A DNA stretch of 64,000 nucleotides. It comes from an uncultured delta proteobacterium (lineage in GTDB: Bacteria; Desulfobacterota; Binatia; UBA9968). A program made the position numbers and the translations under genes. Below the pieces are notes generated by a model. That model had not been told where the DNA came from and ran no database searches. It worked only from the letters and a program-made list of their open reading frames with translations. Shown here piece by piece: positions 1 through 14,522 of the stretch. The stretch lies in NCBI GenBank assembly GCA_963771465.1, contig CAVYTU010000013.1, forward strand, positions 224,001-288,000, given 5' to 3'. Position 1 is the first letter of the stretch. Every line of letters begins with the position of its first letter.

Positions 1-108
1 TCATCGTCAGCGCAGTCGGTCCAATCAGCGCCACCGCCTTGAAACATTTTGACCGCGGATTTTACGCAAAAAGAAAACGATTATCTTATTTATTAAGGAG
101 ATCTGAGT

Positions 109-471
109 ATGGGAAATCTTGCCGCAAACGACCACTCGAGAACTTGGTTGCAGGTTTTCAACAATAGCAAGGTTAATGGCGCGCCTTATCGCGGTGACAA
201 TTTGCCTGCGCATAGTTGGGATTGGCCAACCGACACTTACTTGCAACGCCGCTTGCTCCAGTTGCGGGCGCATGGGGGCGGCGAAACGAAGACCGGTACT
301 TCTGCCGAGGCGGAAAAACAGCAGGACCAACATATGTTCAGCCCGACGCGTATGCTCGATCCGCAGCTCGAAAGAAGCGATACGCTTGTAGCCTACCCGA
401 AAAAACGTCGGAAGCTTCGGGGGATTTCGCCCGCGGTTGGAGCGACGAAGCAACGCCGCCGATCCTCCTGA
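109..471 (+). CDS. hypothetical protein
   Basis: 120-aa ORF with AGGAG 8 nt before the ATG; no recognisable motif. Confidence 0.35.
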   Translation: MGNLAANDHSRTWLQVFNNSKVNGAPYRGDNLPAHSWDWPTDTYLQRRLLQLRAHGGGETKTGTSAEAEKQQDQHMFSPTRMLDPQLERSDTLVAYPKKRRKLRGISPAVGATKQRRRSS

Positions 472-584
472 TGCTGGTGCCGGCTGCGGAGTCCTTCTAG
501 CTAGCAGTGATTTTTATCGCCGCCACCAACATCGGAAGAGACTCTATCGCCTAGCTAGCAGAGCGTGTGCTCGCGTTACATGCG

Positions 585-1724
585 ATGAAACTGGACCGAC
601 ATTTTTCGCCGCCGGTGTCGTCGACCAGCCGGAACCGCACGCGACATTTGTGGGAAATCACTGCGGTGCGCGATCTGGCGCTGATCTTAGTGCCGGTATC
701 GTTGCTCGTGTCGGTCTACCTTTTATGGGATATTTTCCTGCCGGTTTTTCTTGGTCTTTTGATGGCGCATTTTTGCAATCCGGCGATCACGCATCTCGAG
801 CGACGATGGCGCTGGCCGCGCACGCTTACGATTTCGCTCATTTTATTCATCGGATTGGGCCTGCTTGCAGTGCTTCTGATTTGGCTCGTTCCGCTGCTGT
901 ATGAGCAAATCGTCGGGTTGGTAACCAACTTGCCCAAATATTTGCGCGCGTTGGCGCAACGGTTGCAGATCGATGGGGGCGCGCTCGGCGAACAGGTCGA
1001 GGCGGTGTTGGCGCAGGCCCAAGGCGATCCCCGGCAAATATTGGCCCAGGTTTTTCGCAGTACAGGTCAAGCCATCGGCTGGCTTGCAGCGCTGGTCGGT
1101 GTGGTCAGCAATCTGACTTTGGCGTTGATCCTGATCCCAATCTATTTCTTCGTCTTCGCGTGGTATTTCAATCATGGTTTGGCCCGGCTTGAAGCTTATT
1201 TGCCCACCCGCCGCAAAGCGCAAATCTTGCAGGTGTTTGGAGAGATGGATCGCGCAGTCAGCGATTTTTTTCGCGGTCGGCTGGTAATTGCCGTGATCGT
1301 TGGCGCGCTGTTTTCCGCCGGCTGGTACGCCGCCGCCGTGCCTTATTGGTTCGCCCTCGGCATGATCACGGGTTTTTTAAATATCATCCCTTACCTGTCG
1401 GTGATTAGCTGGCCGCTGGCGGTGCTACTCAAGTATGTCAGTGGCTTGGATGCGGGCGCGAGTGGCGGACTGATCGATGCAGTGCTGTGGCCGAGCGCAG
1501 TTTATGTCGTCGTGCAGCTCCTCGAAGGTTGGGTTCTGACCCCGTGGATTCAGAGCGGCCAAACCAACCTTAGCGGCGTCACCATTATCATTGTTGTGTT
1601 CGTCGGCGCTTCCCTGGCCGGCGTCTGGGGCATGCTCTTTGCGATTCCCGTGGCTGCGTGTATCAAAATCGTTTTCGTTGCAACGCTTTTGCCGCAGCTC
1701 AAGCGCTGGGCCGCAGAGCATTGA
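585..1724 (+). CDS. AI-2E (PerM) family transporter
   Basis: Multiple TM segments, 'LNIIPY' and C-terminal 'GVWGMLFAIP' motifs typical of AI-2E; ATG at 585 preferred over GTG at 567. Confidence 0.9.
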   Translation: MKLDRHFSPPVSSTSRNRTRHLWEITAVRDLALILVPVSLLVSVYLLWDIFLPVFLGLLMAHFCNPAITHLERRWRWPRTLTISLILFIGLGLLAVLLIWLVPLLYEQIVGLVTNLPKYLRALAQRLQIDGGALGEQVEAVLAQAQGDPRQILAQVFRSTGQAIGWLAALVGVVSNLTLALILIPIYFFVFAWYFNHGLARLEAYLPTRRKAQILQVFGEMDRAVSDFFRGRLVIAVIVGALFSAGWYAAAVPYWFALGMITGFLNIIPYLSVISWPLAVLLKYVSGLDAGASGGLIDAVLWPSAVYVVVQLLEGWVLTPWIQSGQTNLSGVTIIIVVFVGASLAGVWGMLFAIPVAACIKIVFVATLLPQLKRWAAEH

Positions 1725-1767
1725 GGATCGTTGTTAACCCGTTTGAACCCGTGGAAAGGAGACCGTC

Positions 1768-2124
1768 GTGAACTTAGAAATACGACCGGGACTGTTTCAC
1801 CCCGACATGCTTGCCGCCCATGAGGTCGCCGTAAACTCACAAGCCGCCGAGCAGCCCGAGCAGCGTTTGATGATGGCGGTCCTGGGCGAGGCGCTTTTCT
1901 GTTTCCAAAAGTATCATCTGGCGCCGGACCGGGATGGGAAAAAAATTTTCGCCGAGGCGCAAGACTGGCTGCTCGACGAAAACGAGCAGTGGCCTTTCTC
2001 GTTCAATAACATTTGCGCCGGTTTGGGCATTAGCCCGTCGTATCTGCGCCGTCAGTTGCAGCGTTGGAAGGCGAGCCAACTGTGCCGCGCTGAAGCCGGC
2101 ATGAAACTTCGCCACAGCGCTTAA
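1768..2124 (+). CDS. hypothetical protein of a lineage-expanded family (EQRLMMAVL...WPFSFNNIC..LG..P.YLR)
   Basis: AGGAG RBS upstream of GTG; clear paralogue at 9968-10366. Confidence 0.75.
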   Translation: MNLEIRPGLFHPDMLAAHEVAVNSQAAEQPEQRLMMAVLGEALFCFQKYHLAPDRDGKKIFAEAQDWLLDENEQWPFSFNNICAGLGISPSYLRRQLQRWKASQLCRAEAGMKLRHSA

Positions 2125-2225
2125 GCAGCTAGTTAAACGTTCAGAGATTGACGCTGCGCGAACAGAGCGGCGCAGCGAAAATTGATCGCTGTTTCAATCT
2201 TGTTACGACAAAGAGGTAAATAATA

Positions 2226-2411
2226 ATGATCCATGCGATCCGTGATTTAATGGCCGGCGCCGATCCAACCATGCTGATCGGCTTGATTTGTTCTTCTTGC
2301 GGACTCGGTTTTACTTGCGAAAAGGAGCTGCGCGACCATCAGTTGGTTTGCCGCAGTAGCGGCGAGTTTCTTAGCCAGTTCAATATTGAGAGCGAGCAGC
2401 GTGACAACTAA
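2226..2411 (+). CDS. small single C2HC zinc-finger protein
   Basis: AGAGG RBS; contains C-SS-C-GLG-F-TCEKE-L-RD-H-QLV-C, the classical finger spacing. Confidence 0.65.
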   Translation: MIHAIRDLMAGADPTMLIGLICSSCGLGFTCEKELRDHQLVCRSSGEFLSQFNIESEQRDN

Positions 2412-2466
2412 TAATTAGTTTAATTACATATTCTTCGGAATTCGTCCATCCCGCTGTCCTGTCGTG

Positions 2467-2484
2467 GGGCGCGTAAAAGCGCCC
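2467..2484. terminator. short GC hairpin GGGCGC-GTAAAA-GCGCCC
   Basis: Perfect 6-bp stem downstream of the zinc-finger gene; weak U tract. Confidence 0.3.
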
Positions 2485-2698
2485 TCGGATTTCTAAAACG
2501 TAATTTTTATCCTTCATAGCGCGTAGGGCTTTTTGCGCTATTGGTCAGGTCAACTCCCCACCTGCCGACAACCGCTTTGAGACCCCGTTTCGCGCGTAAG
2601 ATATTTGAATTAAAAGACTTCATCCCCGACGGGTCTGTCGACTTTTTCAAACCGGAATTATGTTGTAGCCAAGGGCCCGACAGTCGAACGGTATACTT

Positions 2699-2714
2699 TG
2701 GCATGTCTGTTGCT
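2699..2714 (+). promoter_or_regulatory. sigma54 -24/-12 promoter
   Basis: TGGCAT-GTCTG-TTGCT, about 47 nt upstream of ATG 2761. Confidence 0.75.
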
Positions 2715-2760
2715 CCAACTAATGCCGATGCAGGAATCGCCGGCTCAAAACAAAAAAAAT

Positions 2761-3501
2761 ATGAGTGAAAAGAGAAACATCCGGATTGCCGCGGTCGGTG
2801 ATTTACACTGCACCAAAACTTCCCAGGGAAAGCTGCACGCGTTATTCCAGCAGATTTCCGAGAATGCAGACATTCTGCTTTTATGCGGCGATTTGGTTGA
2901 CTATGGTCAGCACGACGAAGCGGTGGTGTTGGCTAAGGAATTAGCGCCGATCAAAATTCCCATGCTGGGCGTGTTGGGAAATCATGAGTATGAGTCCAAC
3001 CAGCAACTCGACGTCCTCCGTATTTTAGGTGACGCGGGGGTGACGATTCTCGACGGCGATGCCGTTGAAATTCTCGGCATCGGCTTTGTCGGAGCCAAGG
3101 GGTTCGGTGGCGGCTTTGGCGAACAGGCGTTGCAGCCTTGGGGTGAGGAAGCGGTCAAGAATTTTGTTCACGAGGCGGTCAACGAAACCCTGAAGCTCGA
3201 ATCCGCATTGGCAAAGTTGCGCACCGAACAACGGATTGCGCTGCTCCATTACTCGCCGATACGGGCTACGGTGGTCGGCGAGCCGCTGGAGATCTATGCC
3301 TTTCTAGGTTCGAGCCGGCTCGAAGAGCCGCTCAACCGATACCCGGTGAACGCGATATTTCACGGCCATGCCCATCGTGGCTCGCCGGAAGGACGCACGC
3401 AAAATAATGTGCCGGTCTACAACGTCGCCATGAAGCTTTTGGCGAAAACATTTCCAGACCAACCACCTTACAAAATTCTCGAACTGCCGGCCGTGTCTTA
3501 G
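2761..3501 (+). CDS. calcineurin-like metallophosphoesterase (Icc-related)
   Basis: Motifs GDLH, GDLVD, GNHE and GHAH. Confidence 0.92.
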   Translation: MSEKRNIRIAAVGDLHCTKTSQGKLHALFQQISENADILLLCGDLVDYGQHDEAVVLAKELAPIKIPMLGVLGNHEYESNQQLDVLRILGDAGVTILDGDAVEILGIGFVGAKGFGGGFGEQALQPWGEEAVKNFVHEAVNETLKLESALAKLRTEQRIALLHYSPIRATVVGEPLEIYAFLGSSRLEEPLNRYPVNAIFHGHAHRGSPEGRTQNNVPVYNVAMKLLAKTFPDQPPYKILELPAVS

Positions 3502-3516
3502 GCCGCGGATTTGCCT

Positions 3517-4305
3517 ATGGAATGCTTAACCGATCAAAAAAAAACCAACGACTTTTATTGTCGCGTGCTCCATACGCTCAACGCGGCCAAGGTGCCCTTT
3601 CTAGTCGGCGGCGCCTGCATGCTGGAAAGGATCACCGGAATCGTGCGGCCGACCAAGGACTTCGATCTCCATGTGCGTCCGCAAGAGATCGCGGGAATCT
3701 TTGCCACCCTGGACGCGGCAGGATACCAGACCGAGATGACATTCTCACACTGGCTCGGCAAAGTCTTCCAGCGTACCCATTACATCGATATAATTTTCAG
3801 CTCGGGAAACGGCATATGCCGAGTCGATGACGAATGGTTTGACCATGCCATCGCCGGTGAAATCTTCGGCGTGCCCGTGCGGTTCTGCGCGCCCGAGGAG
3901 GCGATCTGGTCCAAAGCTTTCATTTTGGAGCGCGAGCGCTACGATGGTGCCGACATCGCCCATCTCATTTTAGCTGCGGCGCCACAGATGGATTGGCGAC
4001 GGCTGCTGCACCGATTCGGCGAACATTGGCGGGTGCTGTTAAGCCATCTCGTGCTGTTCGGATTTATCTATCCGGGGCGAACTCATCTGGTGCCCGCCTG
4101 GGTGCTCAACGAGCTTTGGCAGCGCCAGTGTCGCGAGTCCGAAAATTCGGCCGATGATCTATGCCGGGGAACACTGCTATCGCGTACCCAGTATCTCTAT
4201 GACATAGAAAATTGGGGTTATCGCGACGCGCGCCTGCATCCACCGGCGAGTATGAGCCCCGAGGACGTCGAGCGCTGGACCCAGAAAGCGATGCATCAGG
4301 AATAA
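3517..4305 (+). CDS. nucleotidyltransferase family protein (pol-beta superfamily)
   Basis: 'LVGG...RPTKDFDL' GG + DxD motif; directly follows the phosphoesterase. Confidence 0.85.
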   Translation: MECLTDQKKTNDFYCRVLHTLNAAKVPFLVGGACMLERITGIVRPTKDFDLHVRPQEIAGIFATLDAAGYQTEMTFSHWLGKVFQRTHYIDIIFSSGNGICRVDDEWFDHAIAGEIFGVPVRFCAPEEAIWSKAFILERERYDGADIAHLILAAAPQMDWRRLLHRFGEHWRVLLSHLVLFGFIYPGRTHLVPAWVLNELWQRQCRESENSADDLCRGTLLSRTQYLYDIENWGYRDARLHPPASMSPEDVERWTQKAMHQE

Positions 4306-4453
4306 CGCCCTGGGGGCCGCGGCCGTTTAGTATTCAAGGTCAATATTCGATTGACTCGTTTCATCGGGCTCCATTTAAATTTTTCAGCTGAATAATCAGA
4401 TCGAACGCATCTCCAGCCTTGAACCACCGTCCGCATAAATGTAGAAGCGGCCA

Positions 4454-7273
4454 ATGAAACGATTGCTCGGCTATGAGTACCTGCGCCAACGCTTCGACAC
4501 CCTATCGCTGCGCGCGCACCTGTTTGCGCTGGTGGTGCTGTCGGTGCTGCCGTTTCTGGTGTTTGCGTTCCTGGTGCTAAATCTTTTCGCGAGCCGAGAA
4601 AAAGCGTCGCTGGCTACCGGCTTGCGCGAAACGACCCGGGCGCTGTCCTCCGCTTTGGATCGCGAGTTCGAAGCGACCAAAACGGCCCTCGAGGCGGTGG
4701 GGACTCTGGAGGACTTCGATAGCGGCGACCTCGCCCCAGTCTATCGTAAACTGCGGCGCGTCTTGGAGAGCCGTCCCAATTGGCGAACCATTGTGCTTCA
4801 CGACCCGTCTGGGCGCCCGGTTTTGGATGTGCTCAATCGATTCGGTGAACCGCTGTCCGAGGCCGACATCGACCAGGAAAGTTTCCGGGCGACCCTAACC
4901 CGTAAGCAGCCCATGCCGATCAATTTTCATCGCGATCCGGCTGCCGGCCCGATGGTTGGATATCGTGTGCCGGTGCTGCGCGCCGGTGAATTGCGCTACG
5001 TGCTCTCGGCGGAGATTGCCCCGGCGGTGTTCGGTGAAATTCTCTCCCGCCAGAAATTGCCGCCCCAGGCCTTGGCTACAATTGTCGATGGACGCAATAT
5101 TATCGTCGCCGTTAGCGCGCGCCCGCAACTGGTCGGTCAAATCGCGGGACCTCTGGTACGCCGCGCTGCGCCGGGTGAGCTCGATGGCTGGTTCGAAGGG
5201 CTTGACCGAGAAGGGGTCGAATCCTTCGCGGCATTTAGCCGTTCACCGACCAATGGCTGGGCGGTGTCGCTGACGATTCCCGCCGCACAACTCGAGGCGC
5301 CGCTAAGGCGTTCACTGTGGGCATTGGTAGGCGCGGGGGTGATCTTTCTGGTCGTCGGTATCTTGCTGGCGGTGATCGTCGAAGCGCGCATCACCGAACC
5401 GCTCGATCAATTGACGCGCCAAACCGGTGCCCTCGGTCGGGGCGAGGCGGTGGTCATGAGCGGCCATTCTCGGGTGACCGAAGTGGAGAACCTCAGGCGC
5501 GATATCGGTCGCACGGCCGGGTTGCTTGAGCAGCGCGGCCAGGAGCGCGACAGCGCGGCAGTGGCGCTGCGCGATTTGAACGATCGCTTGGAGCTGCGCA
5601 TCCTGGAGCGTACCGAAGAGTTAGAAGACACCAACAGCGCACTCAGGAAAGAAATCCGCGAGCGCCAACTGGCCGAAGCCGCGCTGCGCACGGAGCATGT
5701 ATTTTTAAATCTACTGCGAAGCACCGAGCTGGTTATCCATGAGGCGGCGAGTATAGAGGGCGCCTTGAACGCAGCCCTCGAGCAAATCTGCCGCCATCTG
5801 AGATCGCCGGTTGGCTACTGTTTGATACCGGCTGCGGCCAAGCAGGACCGAGGCACTTTTCTCTGGTATGTCGAGCCAGACCGGGAGCGCTTCGCCGCCC
5901 TGCAATTTGCCCTTGAGTGCGCCGGTGCCGACGGTAACGACCTGGCCTCGCTGGCGTTGTCGAGCCGCAAACTAAACTGCTTCAACGACTTGGCTGCGCA
6001 ACCTGAGCAGTGGGCGCACGCGGCGAGCGATGCGGGTCTGGTATCGGCCTGTGTTTTTGCCGTGATCTGTGGCGGTGAGCCGACCGCCGCCCTGGCGTTT
6101 TTTTTCGAGCGCGCCATCGAATTAGATCAACGGCTCTCGACGCTATTAGCGCAGCTGGCGATGCAACTGGGCCGGGCCGTCGAGCGTCAGCAGGCCGATG
6201 AGGCACTGCGACTGAGCGAAGAGCGCTTTCGTTCGGCCTTTGACGAAGGACCCATCGGCATCGGCATGGTCGATCTCGAAATGCGCTATTTGCGCGTCAA
6301 CGAAGCGCTCTGCGGCATGCTCGGGTTGCCGAGCGAAGAGTTGTTGGGGCAAAAGTTTTTCGCCAGCGTCCATCCCAGGGATGTGAGTGATATTCGGCGC
6401 CAGGCCGAACGATTGTTGCGCGGTGAGACGACTGGCTATCGCCACGAAACCCGGCTGATCGGCTCTAACGGCGAAATCCTTTGGTGCTGCATCACCGCCA
6501 CTCTGATCGCCACACGCGACCCCACGCCCAATTATGCCCTCTACCTGATCGAAAATATCACCGAGCGTAAACGCATGGAGGAAAAATTGCGCGAAAGCGA
6601 ACGGCTCGCAGCGGTCGGCGCCACCTCGGCCATGTTCGCCCATGAAGTGGGAAATCCACTCAACGGCATTTCCACCACCGTGCAGATGATCGAGCGCGAT
6701 CTGTCGCGCGCGCAAAACGGGATTAACCCCCTGGTGTTCTCGGCCCTGGGCGATATCAAGAGTGAGATTACCCGTTTGGGCGCGCTACTCCATGAATTTC
6801 GCTACCTAGCACGGCCGCAACGATTGGAACAACATCCGGTCCGCCTGGAGAATTTAATTAAGTCTGTGTTAGTGCCGAATGCCTATAGCGAAAAGGGGGT
6901 GGAGCTCAAAATCGCGATTCCCGCCGATCTGCCGGCCATCAGCGTTGACGAAGAGAAGCTCAAGCAAGTGGTGACCAATCTTGCCGACAATGCTGTCGAC
7001 GCCATGCCCGAGGGCGGCACGCTGACAGTGCGCGCTTACCGTAGCCGGGATGAACTTTGCCTCGAGCTTGCGGATACCGGTATCGGCATCGCGCCGGGCG
7101 TGAATATTTTCGAGCTCTTTACCACGACCAAGTCCCACGGTACGGGGCTCGGCCTAGCCGTGGTCCGCCAAATCGTATCCGCCCATGGCGGCCGGGTCGA
7201 TTATCGCAGCGTGCCCGGCACCGGTACGACCTTTACCGTGACGCTGCCGCTCAATGAAGAAATTTCAAATTAA
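4454..7273 (+). CDS. membrane sensor histidine kinase (Cache-HAMP-GAF-PAS-HisKA-HATPase), NtrB-like
   Basis: Two TMs, PAS 'VNEALCGMLG', H-box AHEVGNPL, N-box NAVDAM, G boxes DTGIGI and GTGLGL. Confidence 0.95.
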   Translation: MKRLLGYEYLRQRFDTLSLRAHLFALVVLSVLPFLVFAFLVLNLFASREKASLATGLRETTRALSSALDREFEATKTALEAVGTLEDFDSGDLAPVYRKLRRVLESRPNWRTIVLHDPSGRPVLDVLNRFGEPLSEADIDQESFRATLTRKQPMPINFHRDPAAGPMVGYRVPVLRAGELRYVLSAEIAPAVFGEILSRQKLPPQALATIVDGRNIIVAVSARPQLVGQIAGPLVRRAAPGELDGWFEGLDREGVESFAAFSRSPTNGWAVSLTIPAAQLEAPLRRSLWALVGAGVIFLVVGILLAVIVEARITEPLDQLTRQTGALGRGEAVVMSGHSRVTEVENLRRDIGRTAGLLEQRGQERDSAAVALRDLNDRLELRILERTEELEDTNSALRKEIRERQLAEAALRTEHVFLNLLRSTELVIHEAASIEGALNAALEQICRHLRSPVGYCLIPAAAKQDRGTFLWYVEPDRERFAALQFALECAGADGNDLASLALSSRKLNCFNDLAAQPEQWAHAASDAGLVSACVFAVICGGEPTAALAFFFERAIELDQRLSTLLAQLAMQLGRAVERQQADEALRLSEERFRSAFDEGPIGIGMVDLEMRYLRVNEALCGMLGLPSEELLGQKFFASVHPRDVSDIRRQAERLLRGETTGYRHETRLIGSNGEILWCCITATLIATRDPTPNYALYLIENITERKRMEEKLRESERLAAVGATSAMFAHEVGNPLNGISTTVQMIERDLSRAQNGINPLVFSALGDIKSEITRLGALLHEFRYLARPQRLEQHPVRLENLIKSVLVPNAYSEKGVELKIAIPADLPAISVDEEKLKQVVTNLADNAVDAMPEGGTLTVRAYRSRDELCLELADTGIGIAPGVNIFELFTTTKSHGTGLGLAVVRQIVSAHGGRVDYRSVPGTGTTFTVTLPLNEEISN

Positions 7274-7316
7274 ACATTCAGACCGATAAATTCGCCGGCT
7301 CTGGGGGCGCGATGTT

Positions 7317-7436
7317 TTAATTTTTACCTTTAAAGTTTTGATTTTTCTTATCGATCATCACCCGCCGCCCGCGCATGGAGCCGCCGCTGCTTCGTGGCCG
7401 CCTCTTTTTCTTAGATTGCTGGCGTTTCTTGCGCAT
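7317..7436 (-). CDS. possible very basic 39-aa peptide MRKKRQQSKKKRRPRSSGG...
   Basis: Translated by hand; GAAGGTG upstream; co-oriented behind the zinc-finger gene. Confidence 0.25.
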   Translation of the reverse strand: MRKKRQQSKKKRRPRSSGGSMRGRRVMIDKKNQNFKGKN

Positions 7437-7495
7437 GGGTCACCTTCGCTTGCAGCTCTGCCGCGTGTGGTAAATCGCTGTCGGTGCCATTACAA

Positions 7496-7642
7496 CTAGA
7501 CTCTCGGCTGGACTTTATCACCCTGGCAAGTTTCTTCATGCTTGCGCAGGTCCGCTTCAGTTTCAAACACCGCGCCGCAGAAATCACACTCGAATTTGGA
7601 AATTTCACCAGGCTCCGGGGGGTTGGATCGATCGGTATTCAT
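7496..7642 (-). CDS. 48-aa single C2HC zinc-finger microprotein (not in ORF track)
   Basis: GGAGGTG RBS; MNTDRSNPPEPGEISKFECDFCGAVFETEADLRKHEETCQGDKVQPRV matches F-x-C-x2-C-x3-F-x5-L-x2-H-x3-C. Confidence 0.8.
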   Translation of the reverse strand: MNTDRSNPPEPGEISKFECDFCGAVFETEADLRKHEETCQGDKVQPRV

Positions 7643-7712
7643 CTTATCTCACCTCCGCGCTTCGTTTAGCGGCAAGGGTTGTAACTTGGCATTGCCCGCT
7701 TAAATCTTCCAT

Positions 7713-7874
7713 CTAGGTCCGGTCAGACGACCGCCCTTCGGAACGCTTTGCCAGCTCCGAGAACCGACCGTTCGGTGTTTTGAGAAGCATCGCTCGCAAC
7801 GGCGATGCGAACGTCGTTGTTGCCGTCACTAACCCAATAATCAGTAGCGCACCGAGAACGATCTGCCGGCGCAT
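7713..7874 (-). CDS. 53-aa putative secreted peptide
   Basis: GGGAGG RBS and sigma54 motif upstream; signal-peptide-like N-terminus MRRQIVLGALLIIGLVTATTTFA. Confidence 0.55.
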   Translation of the reverse strand: MRRQIVLGALLIIGLVTATTTFASPLRAMLLKTPNGRFSELAKRSEGRSSDRT

Positions 7875-7904
7875 TCGCCACCCCTCCCGCACCTTCAACT
7901 TTTG

Positions 7905-7920
7905 GGCAAAGTTTGTGCCG
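7905..7920 (-). promoter_or_regulatory. sigma54 -24/-12 promoter
   Basis: Minus strand reads CGGCAC-AAACT-TTGCC. Confidence 0.65.
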
Positions 7921-7949
7921 TCGATTTCTGAGTTAAGCAGCTGTGAATA

Positions 7950-7967
7950 TGTGCCGATTCCGGCACA
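7950..7967. promoter_or_regulatory. palindrome TGTGCCG-ATTC-CGGCACA, candidate regulator site
   Basis: Perfect 7-bp arms between divergent sigma54 promoters. Confidence 0.4.
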
Positions 7968-8102
7968 CAACCGGCTCGCCGGGTCGCAAAGTTGGGACAG
8001 CTCTCGCGTTTATTTTTTCGCTTGACCTGATTTTAGTTCTTCTTATTCAAGGAGAAAGTCCTACTGCGCGCTTAGGAGCAGCATCGGAACTGTGACAGGC
8101 AC

Positions 8103-8118
8103 TGGCTTCGGTTTTGCG
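8103..8118 (+). promoter_or_regulatory. sigma54 -24/-12 promoter
   Basis: TGGCTT-CGGTT-TTGCG upstream of ATG 8158. Confidence 0.55.
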
Positions 8119-8157
8119 TTAAAACCGGACAAATTTTCTTATTTATCAGGAGTGGTC

Positions 8158-9168
8158 ATGACTGAGAAAAACAGCCGCTGGGGTATTGTGCTCGCGGGGG
8201 GTGAAGGAAATCGGGTGCGGGACTTTCTCTCGGCACTGTGCGGCGGGCGAGGCATCAAACAATATTGCTCGGTCTTAGGCAGGCGCTCTTTGCTGCAAAT
8301 GACCGTGGATCGCGTCCAGCAGCTGATTCCACGTGAGCGCATTCTTATCATTGTCGACAAACGCCACCGGCCGGAAGCAACCGCGCAGCTCGCCGGCTGG
8401 CCGGAGGAGAACATCATCTATCAACCCGCTAATCGCGAGACCGCCCCCGGCATCCTGCTGCCGCTGGCACACGTGAGCCATCGCTGCCCGGACGCGACGG
8501 TGGCGGTTTTTCCGTCCGACCATTTTATCGCCAACGAGCGCGGCTTTATGACCCATGTGGCGAAGGCTTTCGAGGAAACCGAAGTGTTTCCGCAAAGTGC
8601 GATTTTGCTGGGTATGACGCCGGATCGCGTTGAAGATGGCTATGGCTGGATTAGCAGCCGGGAAGAGCGCGCCGGTAAAGCCAGCCGAGCGGTGCGCGGC
8701 TTTTGGGAAAAACCTGCACTGCCCCATGCTGAAGAGTTGATGCAGCAGGGCGCTCTGTGGAACACTTTTGTGTTTGCCGCTCGCGCGTCAGCAATGTGGG
8801 AGATGACGCGCCAAACCGTGCCGAATCTTTACGGACTATTCACCGGCGTGCGAGCGATGCTGGGTACGACGCATGCGCAGAAATATATCGACCAAACCTA
8901 TGAGCGCCTGTGCGCGGTCAACTTCAGCTCGGCGATTCTCGCCCGCTGCGCGGCTCGCCTTCGAGTCCTACCGGTGCCGGACATTGGCTGGAGCGACTGG
9001 GGTAGCGCCGACAGAATCCTCGACTCGGCGATGCGCATGGGACGTGTGGGCGAGCTAGCCGCTCGTCTGGAGAATCAATACGTCGACGACCCGTCGATCA
9101 TAAATCTGCTGTCGCGTTACCAATCGTCTTCGAAGCAGGTGGCCTACGAAAATTCGGCTATAGCATAA
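8158..9168 (+). CDS. sugar-phosphate nucleotidyltransferase (mannose-1-phosphate guanylyltransferase-like)
   Basis: LAGGEG, KQY, NRETAPG, FPSDH, EKP and GWSDWG motifs; AGGAG RBS before 8158. Confidence 0.88.
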   Translation: MTEKNSRWGIVLAGGEGNRVRDFLSALCGGRGIKQYCSVLGRRSLLQMTVDRVQQLIPRERILIIVDKRHRPEATAQLAGWPEENIIYQPANRETAPGILLPLAHVSHRCPDATVAVFPSDHFIANERGFMTHVAKAFEETEVFPQSAILLGMTPDRVEDGYGWISSREERAGKASRAVRGFWEKPALPHAEELMQQGALWNTFVFAARASAMWEMTRQTVPNLYGLFTGVRAMLGTTHAQKYIDQTYERLCAVNFSSAILARCAARLRVLPVPDIGWSDWGSADRILDSAMRMGRVGELAARLENQYVDDPSIINLLSRYQSSSKQVAYENSAIA

Positions 9169-9260
9169 CTACGTGGCGGCGAGATTAACCCGCCGCCAAG
9201 TGTCTCTTGATCCCTCAAGAGACCGAGCGAAATACAATATAAAGCTTACAGCCGGAAACT

Positions 9261-9920
9261 TTACTGCCTCAGTGCGGCGATACGGTCTTCGGTGGCGGGA
9301 TGGCTTGATAAGAAACCGCCGCCTCCTCTGCCGGCTTCTTGGCTGAGAAGCCACTTGAGAGTTCGTTCCATGGTTTGGGGCGGATAACCGGCGCGTTGTA
9401 ACAGTTCCATGGCGTGGCGATCGGCGGCGAATTCCTCTTGACGGCCGTACCCCCTGGCGATCAGAGTGCCGGCAATGGGTGTGACCGCACTGCTGCCGGG
9501 AAACAGCTGTTCCAGCAACACTACGCCAATATTCAAGCCAGCGCCGAGCACCTGCGCTCTGGCGACATGGCCGAGATCGTCATGGGCGATTTCATGGGCT
9601 AGCACGCCGCGCAATTGCTCGTCACTGGCTCTTTGTAACAAACCGGTCGTAACGTAAAATTCGCCTCCGCCGGCATTAGCCGCGTTGATACTCGGATCGT
9701 CGATTAAGCCGATGCGTACCTGGCTCGCCGAGCCGCGCTTATTTGTCGCCTGCAAGAGCGGCAACATGGTGCGCTTGAGGCGTTCGGCCTGGCGCCCATC
9801 GAAGGGCACCGTGCGGACGCTAGACTGCGCCGCGGGTTCGCTGTCTCCCGAACTCGTGACAAACTCAACGCATCCACTCAGCAGTAAGAGCGCTAGCACG
9901 ATCCGAATCGGTCTTCTCAT
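9261..9920 (-). CDS. M48 family zinc metallopeptidase, lipoprotein
   Basis: Lipobox LLSGC, HEIAH, 'EFAAD', 'SSHP....RI'; start at 9920 or 9938. Confidence 0.9.
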   Translation of the reverse strand: MRRPIRIVLALLLLSGCVEFVTSSGDSEPAAQSSVRTVPFDGRQAERLKRTMLPLLQATNKRGSASQVRIGLIDDPSINAANAGGGEFYVTTGLLQRASDEQLRGVLAHEIAHDDLGHVARAQVLGAGLNIGVVLLEQLFPGSSAVTPIAGTLIARGYGRQEEFAADRHAMELLQRAGYPPQTMERTLKWLLSQEAGRGGGGFLSSHPATEDRIAALRQ

Positions 9921-9967
9921 GATAAATTCCGACTTCATTTTCTGACCGTTAGCGGTTGTTCTTTGTT

Positions 9968-10366
9968 TCACTGCGGCAGCGCCACGTTCGCCATCGAGAC
10001 GAGACGGCAGTTTTTCCAATGTTGCAGCGCGCAGCGCAATGAATTGGCTTCGATGGCGAGATGCTGGCAAACGTTTTCGAAGGAAAATGGAGAGTCATCA
10101 TCCCTTTGCAATATCCACTCTTCGGCAGCGAAAAAGAGCTTCATGCCGGCGCGGCTGCGAGCAGCAAAATGATGTTGAAAGCAGTAGACCGCGTCATTCA
10201 AGAGCGCGAACAGAAGTTTTTCTTCTGGTTCGTCGTAGGTCTTGCGGTGACTAAAGTCGAGATAAGTGAGCGGCGCCAGAGTGTCGTCGATAAACAGCGG
10301 CAGTAAAGGTATGAGTTTGTCGCTCCATGCAGCCGATTCTAACGATGAAATGTCCGTGTTTGCCAT
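9968..10366 (-). CDS. hypothetical protein, paralogue of 1768-2124
   Basis: GGAGG RBS; EEKLLFALLNDAVYCFQ...AEEWI...SPFSFENVC..L. Confidence 0.75.
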   Translation of the reverse strand: MANTDISSLESAAWSDKLIPLLPLFIDDTLAPLTYLDFSHRKTYDEPEEKLLFALLNDAVYCFQHHFAARSRAGMKLFFAAEEWILQRDDDSPFSFENVCQHLAIEANSLRCALQHWKNCRLVSMANVALPQ

Positions 10367-10419
10367 ACCTCCGCCCTTTCTCATTACTTGTCGGGTGGTG
10401 GACCGATGGACGCAGAGTG

Positions 10420-10435
10420 AGCAAACAGAATGCCA
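10420..10435 (-). promoter_or_regulatory. sigma54 -24/-12 promoter
   Basis: Minus strand reads TGGCAT-TCTGT-TTGCT. Confidence 0.75.
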
Positions 10436-10681
10436 CCAAGGCAAATAAGCAATCAAAGAAACTTTATCAATGACGCCGGCTGCGCTCGGCTCCGCAATGT
10501 CCCACAATCGAGATCGTGGTCTCTAATCAATTGCGAAATTGGGACGTTGTCCAAAAATAAAGCGGTGAATCACCCTACACAGTCGTAAATTTCGTGATGG
10601 TCCGCGGTTTGCTGCATTATTTGTTATTCTCTCCAAACCAAAACACCAAGGTCGAATATAGTTGATGCAGGCTCCTATTCG

Positions 10682-10697
10682 TGGGAGCAGCATTGCA
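10682..10697 (+). promoter_or_regulatory. possible sigma54 promoter (weak)
   Basis: TGGGAG-CAGCA-TTGCA; GG-N10-GC spacing kept. Confidence 0.35.
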
Positions 10698-10784
10698 TTC
10701 ACTGAATTCCATTAGCAAAGTGAGCCCTCGGCTTTCAAGCCGTTTGTGGTCAAGGGTTGAACGATAACACAGAGGAAATTCCAC

Positions 10785-11114
10785 ATGGAACGAAGAACAG
10801 TACGCAAGCCGACTGAGACTGTCAAAAAAAAATCTCCCAAGGCAGCGTCAAAATTAAAGGCAGTACCGCTGGCCTATTTCGCGCCGGAAGCGAATACGGT
10901 GGCGGCAGCCGGGGATTTCAATAATTGGGATGTTCAAGCGAACATGCTCGAAAGAAATGGTGACGGTTGGTGGAAGACCGATCTCAAGCTCACCCCGGGA
11001 CGTTATCTTTACCGCTTTGTGATCAATGGCGAACAGTGGAGTGAAGATCCGGAGAACCCGAATAAAGTTCCTAATGAATTCGCCTCGTACAATTCCATCC
11101 TGGAGGTCCCGTAG
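10785..11114 (+). CDS. CBM48 / isoamylase early-set glycogen-binding domain protein
   Basis: 'AGDFNNW', 'L.PG.Y.YRFVING..W..DP.N' AMPK-beta-like pattern; GAGGA RBS. Confidence 0.88.
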   Translation: MERRTVRKPTETVKKKSPKAASKLKAVPLAYFAPEANTVAAAGDFNNWDVQANMLERNGDGWWKTDLKLTPGRYLYRFVINGEQWSEDPENPNKVPNEFASYNSILEVP

Positions 11115-11256
11115 CAGCGCTGCGAGATCGTCAACGCCAGCATGCCGCTAGTTCGCAAATGGCGCCTGTCTCGATAGCAAAACAGCCGGCTCTGAGAAAA
11201 ATCCTATTATTGGCACTTTTACCGAAGCGGACGTCGCTGATTGAATAAGTTAGCTG

Positions 11257-11272
11257 CGGCACATTGTTTGCT
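11257..11272 (+). promoter_or_regulatory. sigma54 -24/-12 promoter
   Basis: CGGCAC-ATTGT-TTGCT; predicted +1 falls almost at ATG 11285. Confidence 0.65.
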
Positions 11273-11284
11273 GAATTTAGCTGT

Positions 11285-11476
11285 ATGAGATTTGTATGTC
11301 GCCATTGTGAAGAACTTTGCTACGGCGAGGCGTTCCGGGTGACCAGCGTCGACAACGATATAGTTTTGCTCGACATGATCGTCTGTCAACACTGTGCGCT
11401 GGTGGCGCGCGGCTTAGAATTGCCAACGCAGAAAATCGACTTGCCATCTGGAAACGACGCGCAAGTCAATTTTTAA
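11285..11476 (+). CDS. small CxxC...CxxC zinc-ribbon/treble-clef-like protein
   Basis: CRHC and CQHC pairs in 63 aa. Confidence 0.65.
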   Translation: MRFVCRHCEELCYGEAFRVTSVDNDIVLLDMIVCQHCALVARGLELPTQKIDLPSGNDAQVNF

Positions 11477-11764
11477 AGCGTCGCCAAAATTCATTCCCCA
11501 GTAGCACTCGCCGGAGTTCGTAGGGTGGTCGCACGGCTGCCTTCCTCCCGGCGCAGCGAATAACCGCGAAAACGCTGACGGTTTTTATTTGCCTACTAGT
11601 ATTCGAACCACTCCTTAGTTGTGCTCTAGAAGCCCAACGCTCCGAGGGGATTTTCCCAGATAATTTTACCCACTCTCGTAGGGAAAATTCCTGCAAGAAG
11701 GGACTGGAGCGATCTACGCGCAAAAAAATTGCCGTAAAATTGCTAGCGATCCGGCGTAACCACC

Positions 11765-11780
11765 TGGCACGTCCTTTGCC
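11765..11780 (+). promoter_or_regulatory. sigma54 -24/-12 promoter
   Basis: TGGCACG-TCCT-TTGC, consensus match. Confidence 0.8.
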
Positions 11781-11827
11781 CTTGTGACATTCGCGATGAA
11801 AAGCTGCGACTGCGATGGAGGTGACAG

Positions 11828-12163
11828 ATGAAAGATCGATGCGCGATAGGTGTACGGATTTCCTTGCTACCGCAACATTGGTTGCGGCCCTATGAAATTG
11901 GCGTCGTGATTGACCAACAACCGCGAGCATTAAAGAAATGGCTGGTGCAGTTCGAGAATTCCTATCCCGGCGGGGGTATCGACGGAGACAAAATGTGGTG
12001 TGATGAAAGCGATTTTGCCGAAGTGATTCGTCCTCGTAGTGAAGCCACGCGGACCGCGCACATACCGGGGACGTTTCCCCTCGCCGATGCACCGAAGTTT
12101 TCGGGCATAGAAAACGGGGCCGGAGACAGATCGAACGGCAACGGTAGCGTTGTGTTGAGCTGA
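11828..12163 (+). CDS. hypothetical protein (possible small beta-barrel N-terminus)
   Basis: GGAGGT RBS, sigma54 promoter upstream. Confidence 0.65.
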   Translation: MKDRCAIGVRISLLPQHWLRPYEIGVVIDQQPRALKKWLVQFENSYPGGGIDGDKMWCDESDFAEVIRPRSEATRTAHIPGTFPLADAPKFSGIENGAGDRSNGNGSVVLS

Positions 12164-14102: not shown

Positions 14103-14118
14103 TGGCACATGAATTGCG
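14103..14118 (+). promoter_or_regulatory. sigma54 -24/-12 promoter
   Basis: TGGCAC-ATGAA-TTGCG. Confidence 0.78.
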
Positions 14119-14506: not shown

Positions 14507-14522
14507 TGGCATCAGGATTGCG
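14507..14522 (+). promoter_or_regulatory. sigma54 -24/-12 promoter
   Basis: TGGCAT-CAGGA-TTGCG. Confidence 0.75.

Follow-up and report, generated by a model that had tools for sequence, protein, structure and literature searches.

Zinc fingers of the classical C2H2/C2HC type count as an invention of eukaryotes and, to a small extent, of archaea, and a bacterial genome that appears to encode them one at a time, as free-standing small proteins, raises the question of what such a finger would be for. Two open reading frames (ORFs) pose this question in a 64,000-nucleotide (nt) stretch of DNA, hereafter the window, from an uncultured delta proteobacterium (GenBank assembly GCA_963771465.1, contig CAVYTU010000013.1). 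ORF A (protein P0001) lies at 7496-7642 on the minus strand and encodes an acidic one-finger C2HC microprotein of 48 amino acids (aa), and ORF B (P0002), at 2226-2411 on the plus strand, encodes one of 61 aa; the translations contain CDFCGAVFETEADLRKHEETC and CSSCGLGFTCEKELRDHQLVC, respectively. Both ORFs are genuine protein-coding genes under purifying selection, because the ratios of nonsynonymous to synonymous substitution rates (dN/dS) are low, the islands of conservation match the ORF borders, and indels occur only outside the ORFs. Below we give this evidence, place the two proteins in a family, describe the sigma-54 promoters that precede most genes of the ORF A type, and weigh what the fingers may do.

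Two small genes under purifying selection

Both proteins fit the pattern C-x2-C-x3-F-x5-L-x2-H-x3-C, and both start codons are preceded by a Shine-Dalgarno sequence, GGAGG at 7652-7656 (minus strand), as read from the sequence, for ORF A and AGAGG at 2212-2216 (plus strand) for ORF B, each 9 nt before the ATG. An initial annotation, made from the DNA letters, had described exactly this, two stand-alone C2HC ORFs with good ribosome-binding sites, and it was borne out in both cases. For ORF A, five close relatives with 79-98% identity were found in a public protein set, and a related DNA locus, L021, encodes a protein that is 90% identical. Between the window and L021, dN was 0.045 and dS was 0.188 for ORF A, and nucleotide identity amounted to 93.2% in ORF A, 77.9% in the adjoining intergenic DNA and 87.6% in the 3' end of the neighbouring kinase gene; the alignment contains many indels in the flanks and zero inside ORF A. 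ORF B has 12 close relatives (74-95% identity) and orthologues in 4 of the 30 other genomes of the genus, with GAGGAGG or CAGGAGG ahead of the ATG. Its dN/dS was 0.16-0.33 in the informative pairs, and the core LGLICSSCG.GFT.E.ELRDHQ..CRSS.EFLSQF, which runs into a conserved C-terminal extension (CRSSxEFLSQF), is almost fixed even where dS is saturated. When compared by blastn with two relatives from the genus, the conserved island (2207-2409) coincides with ORF B and its Shine-Dalgarno sequence, and the flanks are rearranged. Indels relative to contigs from RNA libraries, like those relative to L021, fall only outside both ORFs.

How often the finger pattern arises by chance was assessed with a six-frame scan of the whole source genome (6.9 Mb, 55.7% G+C, 19 contigs, the window being part of contig C13), using C-x2-C-x3-[hydrophobic]-x5-[hydrophobic]-x2-H-x3-[CH]. 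There were five matches against 0.55 expected from residue frequencies, two of them being ORF A and ORF B, 5.4 kb apart, and the other three forming a small C2H2 family of their own at other places in the genome. The codons of the four ligands were compared among 26 distinct gene copies, and since these had been picked by the motif, only their synonymous switching is informative: TGT and TGC occur in 11 and 15, 8 and 18, and 6 and 20 copies at the three cysteines, and CAT and CAC in 14 and 12 at the histidine. The expectation that the two ORFs would be conserved in related genomes with dN/dS well below 1, and that the Cys and His residues would be under selection, was thereby confirmed, the ligands being invariant in an alignment of diverse relatives, intact in 89 of 94 small relatives (see below) and encoded by codons that switch synonymously.

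These data bear directly on the alternative that the ORFs are not genes, and that either chance reading frames or conserved non-coding elements, such as an RNA or a regulatory site, have a finger-like translation. The ORFs are indeed very short, P0002 scores below every curated Pfam threshold, and the Shine-Dalgarno sequence of ORF A has no counterpart in L021, where a 200-nt upstream stretch is missing. Set against this are the five motif matches where 0.55 were expected, dN/dS well below 1, synonymous variation of the ligand codons, ligands that stay invariant while mean column identity is 31%, the lack of any indel within the ORFs, and the lack of a match to an Rfam family in positions 1-12000 of the window. 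We therefore consider the non-gene explanation very improbable. Positions 1-12000 contain no tRNA either, a promoter and terminator scan of positions 1700-8200 gave counts that were not above those of shuffled sequences, and a hairpin after ORF B was no better as a terminator than shuffles (z = -1.3).

A hint of transcription, not proof, comes from RNA libraries. ORF A is spanned by metatranscriptome contigs of two studies, covering window positions 7425-7793 and 7444-7757, and ORF B is covered in part by contigs from three RNA runs; it weighs on the other side that these contigs may stem from contaminating DNA, and that strand and transcript ends are not readable from them. Public protein collections already contain the exact proteins of ORF A and ORF B as predictions, either unnamed or labelled 'hypothetical', and the two are therefore uncharacterised rather than never called. 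The initial annotation spoke of an unannotated family. This overstates the case, since gene callers had predicted both proteins and a Pfam family, DUF7128, covers ORF A.

A lineage-restricted family of one-finger proteins

P0001 matches Pfam family DUF7128 (PF23447) with 29.8 bits, above the cut-off of 25.7, and with 28.6 bits in the genome scan. It also matches the models zf-C2H2_6, zf-C2H2_4 and zf-C2H2 with E-values of 8e-5 to 5e-4, all below the curated cut-offs. P0002 has no match to DUF7128, so that ORF B is not a member of that family. Taken together, the zf-C2H2-clan matches of the two proteins have E-values between 1e-4 and 1e-2. A test with zf-C2H2 hidden Markov models, as proposed in the initial annotation, thus gave clan matches at E<=1e-2 and no score above a curated cut-off. 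Its assignment of the proteins to stand-alone fingers with the classical 12-residue spacing stood up well, given the zf-C2H2-clan and DUF7128 matches and the alignment of P0001, finger for finger and on through the residues behind the last ligand, with Krueppel-type proteins, both designed and natural, in the PDB; the B-type profile matches Krueppel-type PDB fingers too, more weakly. No NCBIfam model matched either protein, neither was matched by the Ros/MucR Pfam models at E<=1, PHROGs contained no match to P0001 or P0002, and the ESM Atlas held no model of either. The margins by which the Pfam thresholds are missed speak against the assignment: P0001 reaches 20.9 bits where PF00096 demands 25.2, 22.3 where PF13894 demands 27 and 22.9 where PF13912 demands 25, and P0002 passes no Pfam model at all (16.5 bits against the cut-off of 27 for PF13894).

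A family profile was built from ten A-type sequences, that is, sequences related to ORF A, and run against a library of 1.84 billion proteins. The whole library gave 36,305 matched proteins, and those among the matches listed (the best 150 of the 36,305) were 506-3318 aa long, with 9-47 matched stretches each. Since the profile matches such multi-finger proteins, the comparison shows that the family sequence, as judged by profile similarity, sits inside classical-finger sequence space. As a source of small relatives this unrestricted search was useless, all matches listed being large multi-finger proteins. When the same profile was limited to proteins of 18-91 aa, it returned 94 small proteins of 24-90 aa, and C-x2-C-x12-H-x3-C is kept in 89 of them. 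The remaining five have no intact motif, which weighs against the function that we propose below; one is a fragment, and in the other four a single ligand is replaced. Among the four is a near-identical copy of ORF A with Ser in place of the first Cys. In the 90% identity cluster of ORF A the first Cys is kept in 8 of 9 members, and Ser occurs only in the representative, which comes from a 738-nt contig. Apparent fused forms of the finger, acyl-CoA synthetases of 544-545 aa in one 90% cluster, contain no finger and were dismissed as a clustering artefact.

Two alignments were used, one of 39 diverse A-type proteins (A4) and one of 13 B-type proteins (A2). With a mean column identity of 31%, only C19, C22, F26, H35 and C39 are invariant in A4, and G23 is conserved in at least 90% of the sequences. 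Residues other than the ligands are conserved as well, namely the E after F, L-R-x-H and [EQ]-x-[DT]-C. The core Leu three residues before the His is Leu in 22 of the 26 gene copies, Ala in 3 (one 34-aa subfamily) and Val in 1. At E<=0.01, 35 of the 39 members match PF00096 and 32 match DUF7128. When A4 was compared with A2 by hhalign, the probability was 95.3% with an E-value of 2.3e-8; by this profile comparison, ORF A and ORF B belong, as distant relatives, to a single lineage-restricted group. Its subfamilies comprise proteins of 47-49 aa in which an acidic tail comes after ...FECDGCG..FESWERLRQHQVDC, two types of 34 aa, a type of 62-89 aa with the leader AYPEVWGYIRRNQ, the P0001 type and the ORF B type.

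The A4 profile was used to chart the distribution of the group, all counts including the window's own genome. It matched 16 of 31 genomes of the genus (E limit 1e-3), 34 of 90 genomes in 9 of 23 genera of the GTDB family (E limit 1e-4), 9 of 301 genomes in a sample of the class, including 5 of the 25 genomes from the family in that sample (E limit 1e-3), and 3 of 401 genomes in a sample of the phylum (E limit 1e-4). Two of the genomes are unpublished; leaving them out gives 15 of 30 in the genus and 32 of 88 in the family. Judged from these profile matches, the group is concentrated in one GTDB family of soil bacteria and rare outside it. The NCBI labels of the relatives read 'delta proteobacterium' (e.g. 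'MAG: uncultured delta proteobacterium'), with one 'Zixibacteria' and one 'Binatia'. A spread across phyla does not follow from these labels, because the contig labelled 'Zixibacteria' shares its finger with a contig of genome G142, which GTDB places in the family of the window. Sequencing runs containing the locus came from soil, rhizosphere, groundwater and urban metagenomes. A tblastn search of plasmids and phages gave no match, which leaves an origin from mobile elements unsupported. Two of three metagenome loci, L022 and L023, were discarded as spurious, one being a frame inside a large gene on the opposite strand and the other a CxxC...CxxC ribbon.

The source genome holds yet a third family of small proteins, of 50-70 aa, with the C2H2 site CxxCG[AT][KR][MI][FY]...L[LK].H...H. 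Its copies lie at G000 C13:63393-63455 (plus strand), C14:870298-870360 (minus strand) and C15:1219326-1219388 (plus strand), with loci L072-L074 also assigned to it. Two of the three have a GELKKLQ-like tail, and none scores above a curated Pfam cut-off.

Sigma-54 promoters and the surroundings of the finger genes

When upstream regions were compared, TGGCAC-N5-TTGC was noticed before several family members, and a systematic count followed, for which the strict sigma-54 motif YGGYAY-N5-YTGC was required on the coding strand at most 400 nt upstream of the first Cys codon. The motif was found upstream of 21 of 29 distinct finger genes, a count that weighs less than it seems because these genes had been picked by the finger motif and include orthologues, and are therefore not independent. 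All 21 are A-type genes (21 of 24, or 20 of 23 without an unpublished genome), and none is a B-type gene (0 of 5, ORF B and its four orthologues). As background, the motif precedes 126 of the 6735 ORFs of at least 150 aa in the genome of the window (1.9%), and it occurs 371 times genome-wide on both strands, or 0.011 times per 400 nt. Because the finger genes are kin to each other, a binomial test exaggerates the significance, yet the difference between roughly 80% of them and 2% of the background is large. A hold-out set was formed by loci from other genera that were fetched afterwards, and here 9 of 14 finger genes had the motif, in most cases 67-102 nt upstream of the first Cys codon; of the five without it, two had less than 170 nt of upstream sequence available and one is the second gene of a tandem pair. 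The genome also contains the required factors, with one match to PF04552 for rpoN and 27 matches to the sigma-54 activator domain PF00158. In genome G018, a gene for an NtrC-type response regulator/activator ends 240 nt before the finger gene, and the promoter motif lies between the two.

A-type genes typically are monocistronic or open a short unit, with a sigma-54 -24/-12 promoter ahead of them. This link is new here and goes beyond the initial annotation. ORF B, which has no sigma-54 motif and has an extra C-terminal segment, is probably regulated differently. Of note, a block containing CTGTAGG is found about 80-130 nt upstream of the -24 element at loci L009, L040, L027 and L051, and may be a shared site for an activator or for IHF.

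In the window, the motif CGGCACAAACTTTGC lies at 7906-7920 on the minus strand, ahead of three ORFs. Nearest to it, at 7713-7874 (minus strand), is a 53-aa ORF with a hydrophobic N-terminal segment and an ATG at 7874 with GGGAGGGG upstream, followed by ORF A and then, 59 nt downstream on the same strand, by a basic ORF of 39 aa at 7317-7436 (P0259, net charge +16). The motif is conserved in L021 save for one base of the spacer, with diverged flanks. There it stands 71 nt before the start of ORF A, and in the window a 200-nt insertion with the 53-aa ORF separates the two. Because the motif is conserved with L021 and the insertion carries the hydrophobic ORF, the unit in the window likely consists of the promoter, the 53-aa ORF, ORF A and the basic 39-aa ORF, as read from the DNA. 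Two features argue against this promoter assignment: the -24 element in the window reads CGG where TGG is usual, and the motif is 265 nt before the start of ORF A with another ORF in between. The 53-aa ORF itself is weakly supported as a gene; it is absent from L021 and has no Pfam match. About 30 nt upstream of the -24 element is an inverted repeat, TGTGCCG-GAAT-CGGCACA (7950-7967, minus strand), which is largely conserved in L021 and is a candidate activator site.

The basic 39-aa ORF is present only beside genes of the P0001 type. Between the window and L021, 106 of its 120 nt are identical (dN 0.080, dS 0.354); it has no Pfam match, and no relatives at a meaningful E-value were found in the 30 other genomes of the genus. 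The junction between the kinase and nucleoside triphosphate (NTP) transferase genes contains the block with ORF A and the basic ORF in the window and in L021, and in genome G020 it measures only 361 nt and has neither. The basic ORF could possibly encode a partner of the finger or a second microprotein.

The initial annotation placed the fingers around a phosphoesterase/nucleotidyltransferase/kinase block and named the kinase as a candidate partner. In the window, ORF B is followed by genes for a metallophosphoesterase (2698-3501), a nucleotidyltransferase (3511-4305) and a Cache/GAF/PAS histidine kinase of 939 aa (4454-7273), after which come ORF A on the opposite strand and an NTP transferase (8092-9168). 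The proximity is there in the window, and ORF B also stays close to the block in genomes G003 and G020, where it lies about 1.1-1.2 kb upstream of the block's start with an extra EEP-family gene in between; the block is full in G003, and in G020 the alignment covered the kinase and, briefly and weakly, the 5' end of the phosphoesterase gene. For ORF A the linkage is not conserved. The surroundings of most relatives in the genus map to other parts of the window's genome, on contig C15, and A-type genes elsewhere neighbour genes for Wza/Wzc polysaccharide export, MdoG, PQQ dehydrogenase, histidine kinases, receivers, a sigma-54 activator and AAA/BON proteins. The adjacent kinase is not supported as the partner, since there is no universal neighbour, and it was dropped as a candidate. 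This variability also tells against our own proposal of a protein partner, as no neighbouring gene family recurs across the finger loci that would give the partner a name.

Several other features of this region were observed. The whole window contains 9 sigma-54 motifs where 2.74 are expected, and its first 17 kb are dense in them; apart from the motif ahead of ORF A they include 2699-2713 (plus strand), 10421-10435 (minus strand), 11257-11271, 11765-11779, 14103-14117 and 14507-14521 (plus strand). The motif at 2699-2713 is located just before the phosphoesterase gene, which suggests that the phosphoesterase/nucleotidyltransferase/kinase block is also driven by sigma-54; if so, the listed TTG start of the phosphoesterase ORF would lie too far upstream. 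A second, paralogous block of histidine kinase, nucleotidyltransferase and metallophosphoesterase genes is found at G000 C15:517308-520799, and the block near A-type finger genes in genomes G019 and G044 matches it better than the one in the window. Two paralogous small proteins, encoded at 1768-2124 (plus strand) and 9968-10507 (minus strand), have a conserved C-terminal region in common and weak helix-turn-helix-like Pfam hints; a relative of this pair occurs at locus L069, and one of the two lies just upstream of ORF B in the genome of the window only. A block of about 200 nt at 92-289 is roughly 81% conserved with G003 and G020, where it is situated about 270 nt upstream of the ORF B orthologue, and in the window an AI-2E transporter gene and a 118-aa gene are inserted between this block and ORF B. 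No Pfam or Rfam match accounts for its conservation.

Proposed function and comparison with known systems

The reading that we favour, with moderate confidence and on the strength of sequence comparison, is that the family consists of stand-alone, mostly acidic one-finger microproteins, those of the A-type driven by sigma-54, which act by binding a protein partner. An enhancer-binding activator of the NtrC type, usually fed by a two-component system, would fire and switch on the A-type genes, and only then; in the window, the motif at 7906-7920 would drive the unit of the hydrophobic ORF, ORF A and the basic ORF. The finger would bind one Zn(II) through Cys-Cys-His-Cys, fold into a beta-hairpin plus helix, and bind a protein, e.g. 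a component of signalling or transcription, instead of reading DNA. Protein binding is favoured over DNA binding because the members are mostly acidic and exposed residues of the helix are conserved. ORF A has a net charge of -5 and an isoelectric point (pI) of 4.6, ORF B has -4 and 4.8, and for the 39 members of A4 the median net charge is -6 and the median pI 4.37, with a pI below 6 in 31 of them. It speaks against our proposal that the other members, 8 of 39, are neutral or basic, so that DNA or RNA binding is possible for those, and that fold, zinc binding and partner are predictions from sequence.

The same charge data are central to the view of the initial annotation that the proteins are regulators, taken here as one-finger DNA- (or RNA-) binding regulators of transcription like AFV1p06 or GAGA-type fingers. 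The single fingers for which DNA binding is known carry a positive face or a basic tail. The net charges of -5 and -4 and the family median of -6 do not agree with this, nor do the acidic or small residues at those helix positions that usually touch bases (numbering as in Zif268), and basic flanks of the kind used by AFV1p06 or GAGA are missing, as is a conserved target gene beside the family members. What does fit is the likeness in sequence to DNA-binding Krueppel-type fingers, together with a report that a single archaeal-virus finger binds DNA at sub-micromolar concentration (PMC3541406). Because 8 members are neutral to basic, and the very basic 39-aa ORF after ORF A, which could supply DNA affinity, could alter the picture for this sublineage, we retain DNA binding as an unlikely but not negligible explanation.

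Alternatively, the Cys3His site could be a labile switch, of the metal or the thiol kind, or could buffer zinc on a small scale, which would make the proteins zinc- or redox-responsive peptides. Redox switching by Cys-rich zinc sites is seen in small bacterial proteins such as RsrA and Hsp33, cysteines provide three of the four ligands in 89 of the 94 relatives, and expression looks conditional via sigma-54. However, surface residues other than the ligands are conserved across subfamilies, as is expected of a binding surface more than of a plain metal site, one site per peptide implies a low buffering capacity, and genes for zinc uptake or redox functions do not recur nearby. This explanation seems to us improbable.

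If binding to a protein is the mode of action, as we prefer, one can go further and suppose that the proteins form a native bacterial finger family, evolved in bacteria or kept from a deep ancestor, which is induced by sigma-54 and tunes the same signalling circuitry (enhancer-binding activators, response regulators or the sigma-54 holoenzyme), and which in the sublineage of the window is paired with the basic 39-aa peptide. An analogy would be PspA, which acts on PspF as a small anti-activator. This extension is fairly improbable as a whole. If it were true, bacteria would possess the classical finger as a native module for protein interaction, with a regulon logic of its own, and the finding would bear on the origin of the eukaryotic finger.

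The findings themselves describe a coherent, selected family of bacterial one-finger microproteins that comes with a regulatory handle, the sigma-54 promoters. They raise testable questions, namely what the job of a lone classical finger is in a bacterium and whether such fingers modulate two-component or sigma-54 signalling by binding proteins. They add well-supported small genes to the under-annotated bacterial microproteome, and provide a first biological context for part of DUF7128.

With the classical eukaryotic C2H2/C2HC finger (zf-C2H2 clan, Krueppel/TFIIIA), the family of ORF A and ORF B shares an identical ligand spacing and the positions of the core Phe and Leu. The general ligand pattern C-x2-4-C-x12-H-x3-5-[HC] and the hydrophobic core are present, and scores stay below the curated zf-C2H2 threshold. 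In contrast to the eukaryotic proteins, there is one finger, with no tandem array or other domain, the fourth ligand is a Cys at +4 in nearly all members, and the proteins are acidic, bacterial, and expressed from genes with Shine-Dalgarno sites and sigma-54 promoters. Ros/MucR proteins are likewise bacterial and have one Cys/His zinc site per protein; their spacer between Cys and His is shorter, and their globular DNA-binding domain, of about 58 residues, is larger. With a 12-residue spacer and no match to the Ros/MucR Pfam models, ORF A and ORF B fall outside that group. DUF7128, which was presumably built on haloarchaeal proteins, includes P0001 and most of the A4 members and leaves P0002 unmatched. 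No function is attached to it, and searches of a library of open-access papers yielded none with this term, nor one on bacterial stand-alone classical C2HC microproteins or on their link to sigma-54.

Another counterpart is AFV1p06 of Acidianus filamentous virus 1 (PDB 2LVH), likewise a small protein made of one classical finger. According to PMC3541406, AFV1p06 is a small monomer with one classical finger, disordered tails and one zinc, which has no fourth ligand, has a positive helix face and binds GC-rich DNA. The same paper calls classical fingers "practically absent in bacteria" and mentions that no bacterial homologue of AFV1p06 was found (PMC3541406). Unlike AFV1p06, the family described here is acidic and bacterial, and has all four ligands. 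Haloarchaeal C(P)XCG micro-proteins, as described in PMC6562870 and PMC11241148, are also stand-alone zinc-binding proteins, of less than 70 aa, many of them with regulatory or stress phenotypes. They use two C(P)XCG pairs, four Cys in a zinc-ribbon-like arrangement, whereas ORF A and ORF B carry one CxxCG followed by H-x3-C with classical spacing, and so do not belong to them. Finally, with sigma-54-dependent genes the A-type genes share the -24/-12 promoter, in a genome that has both rpoN and sigma-54 activators.

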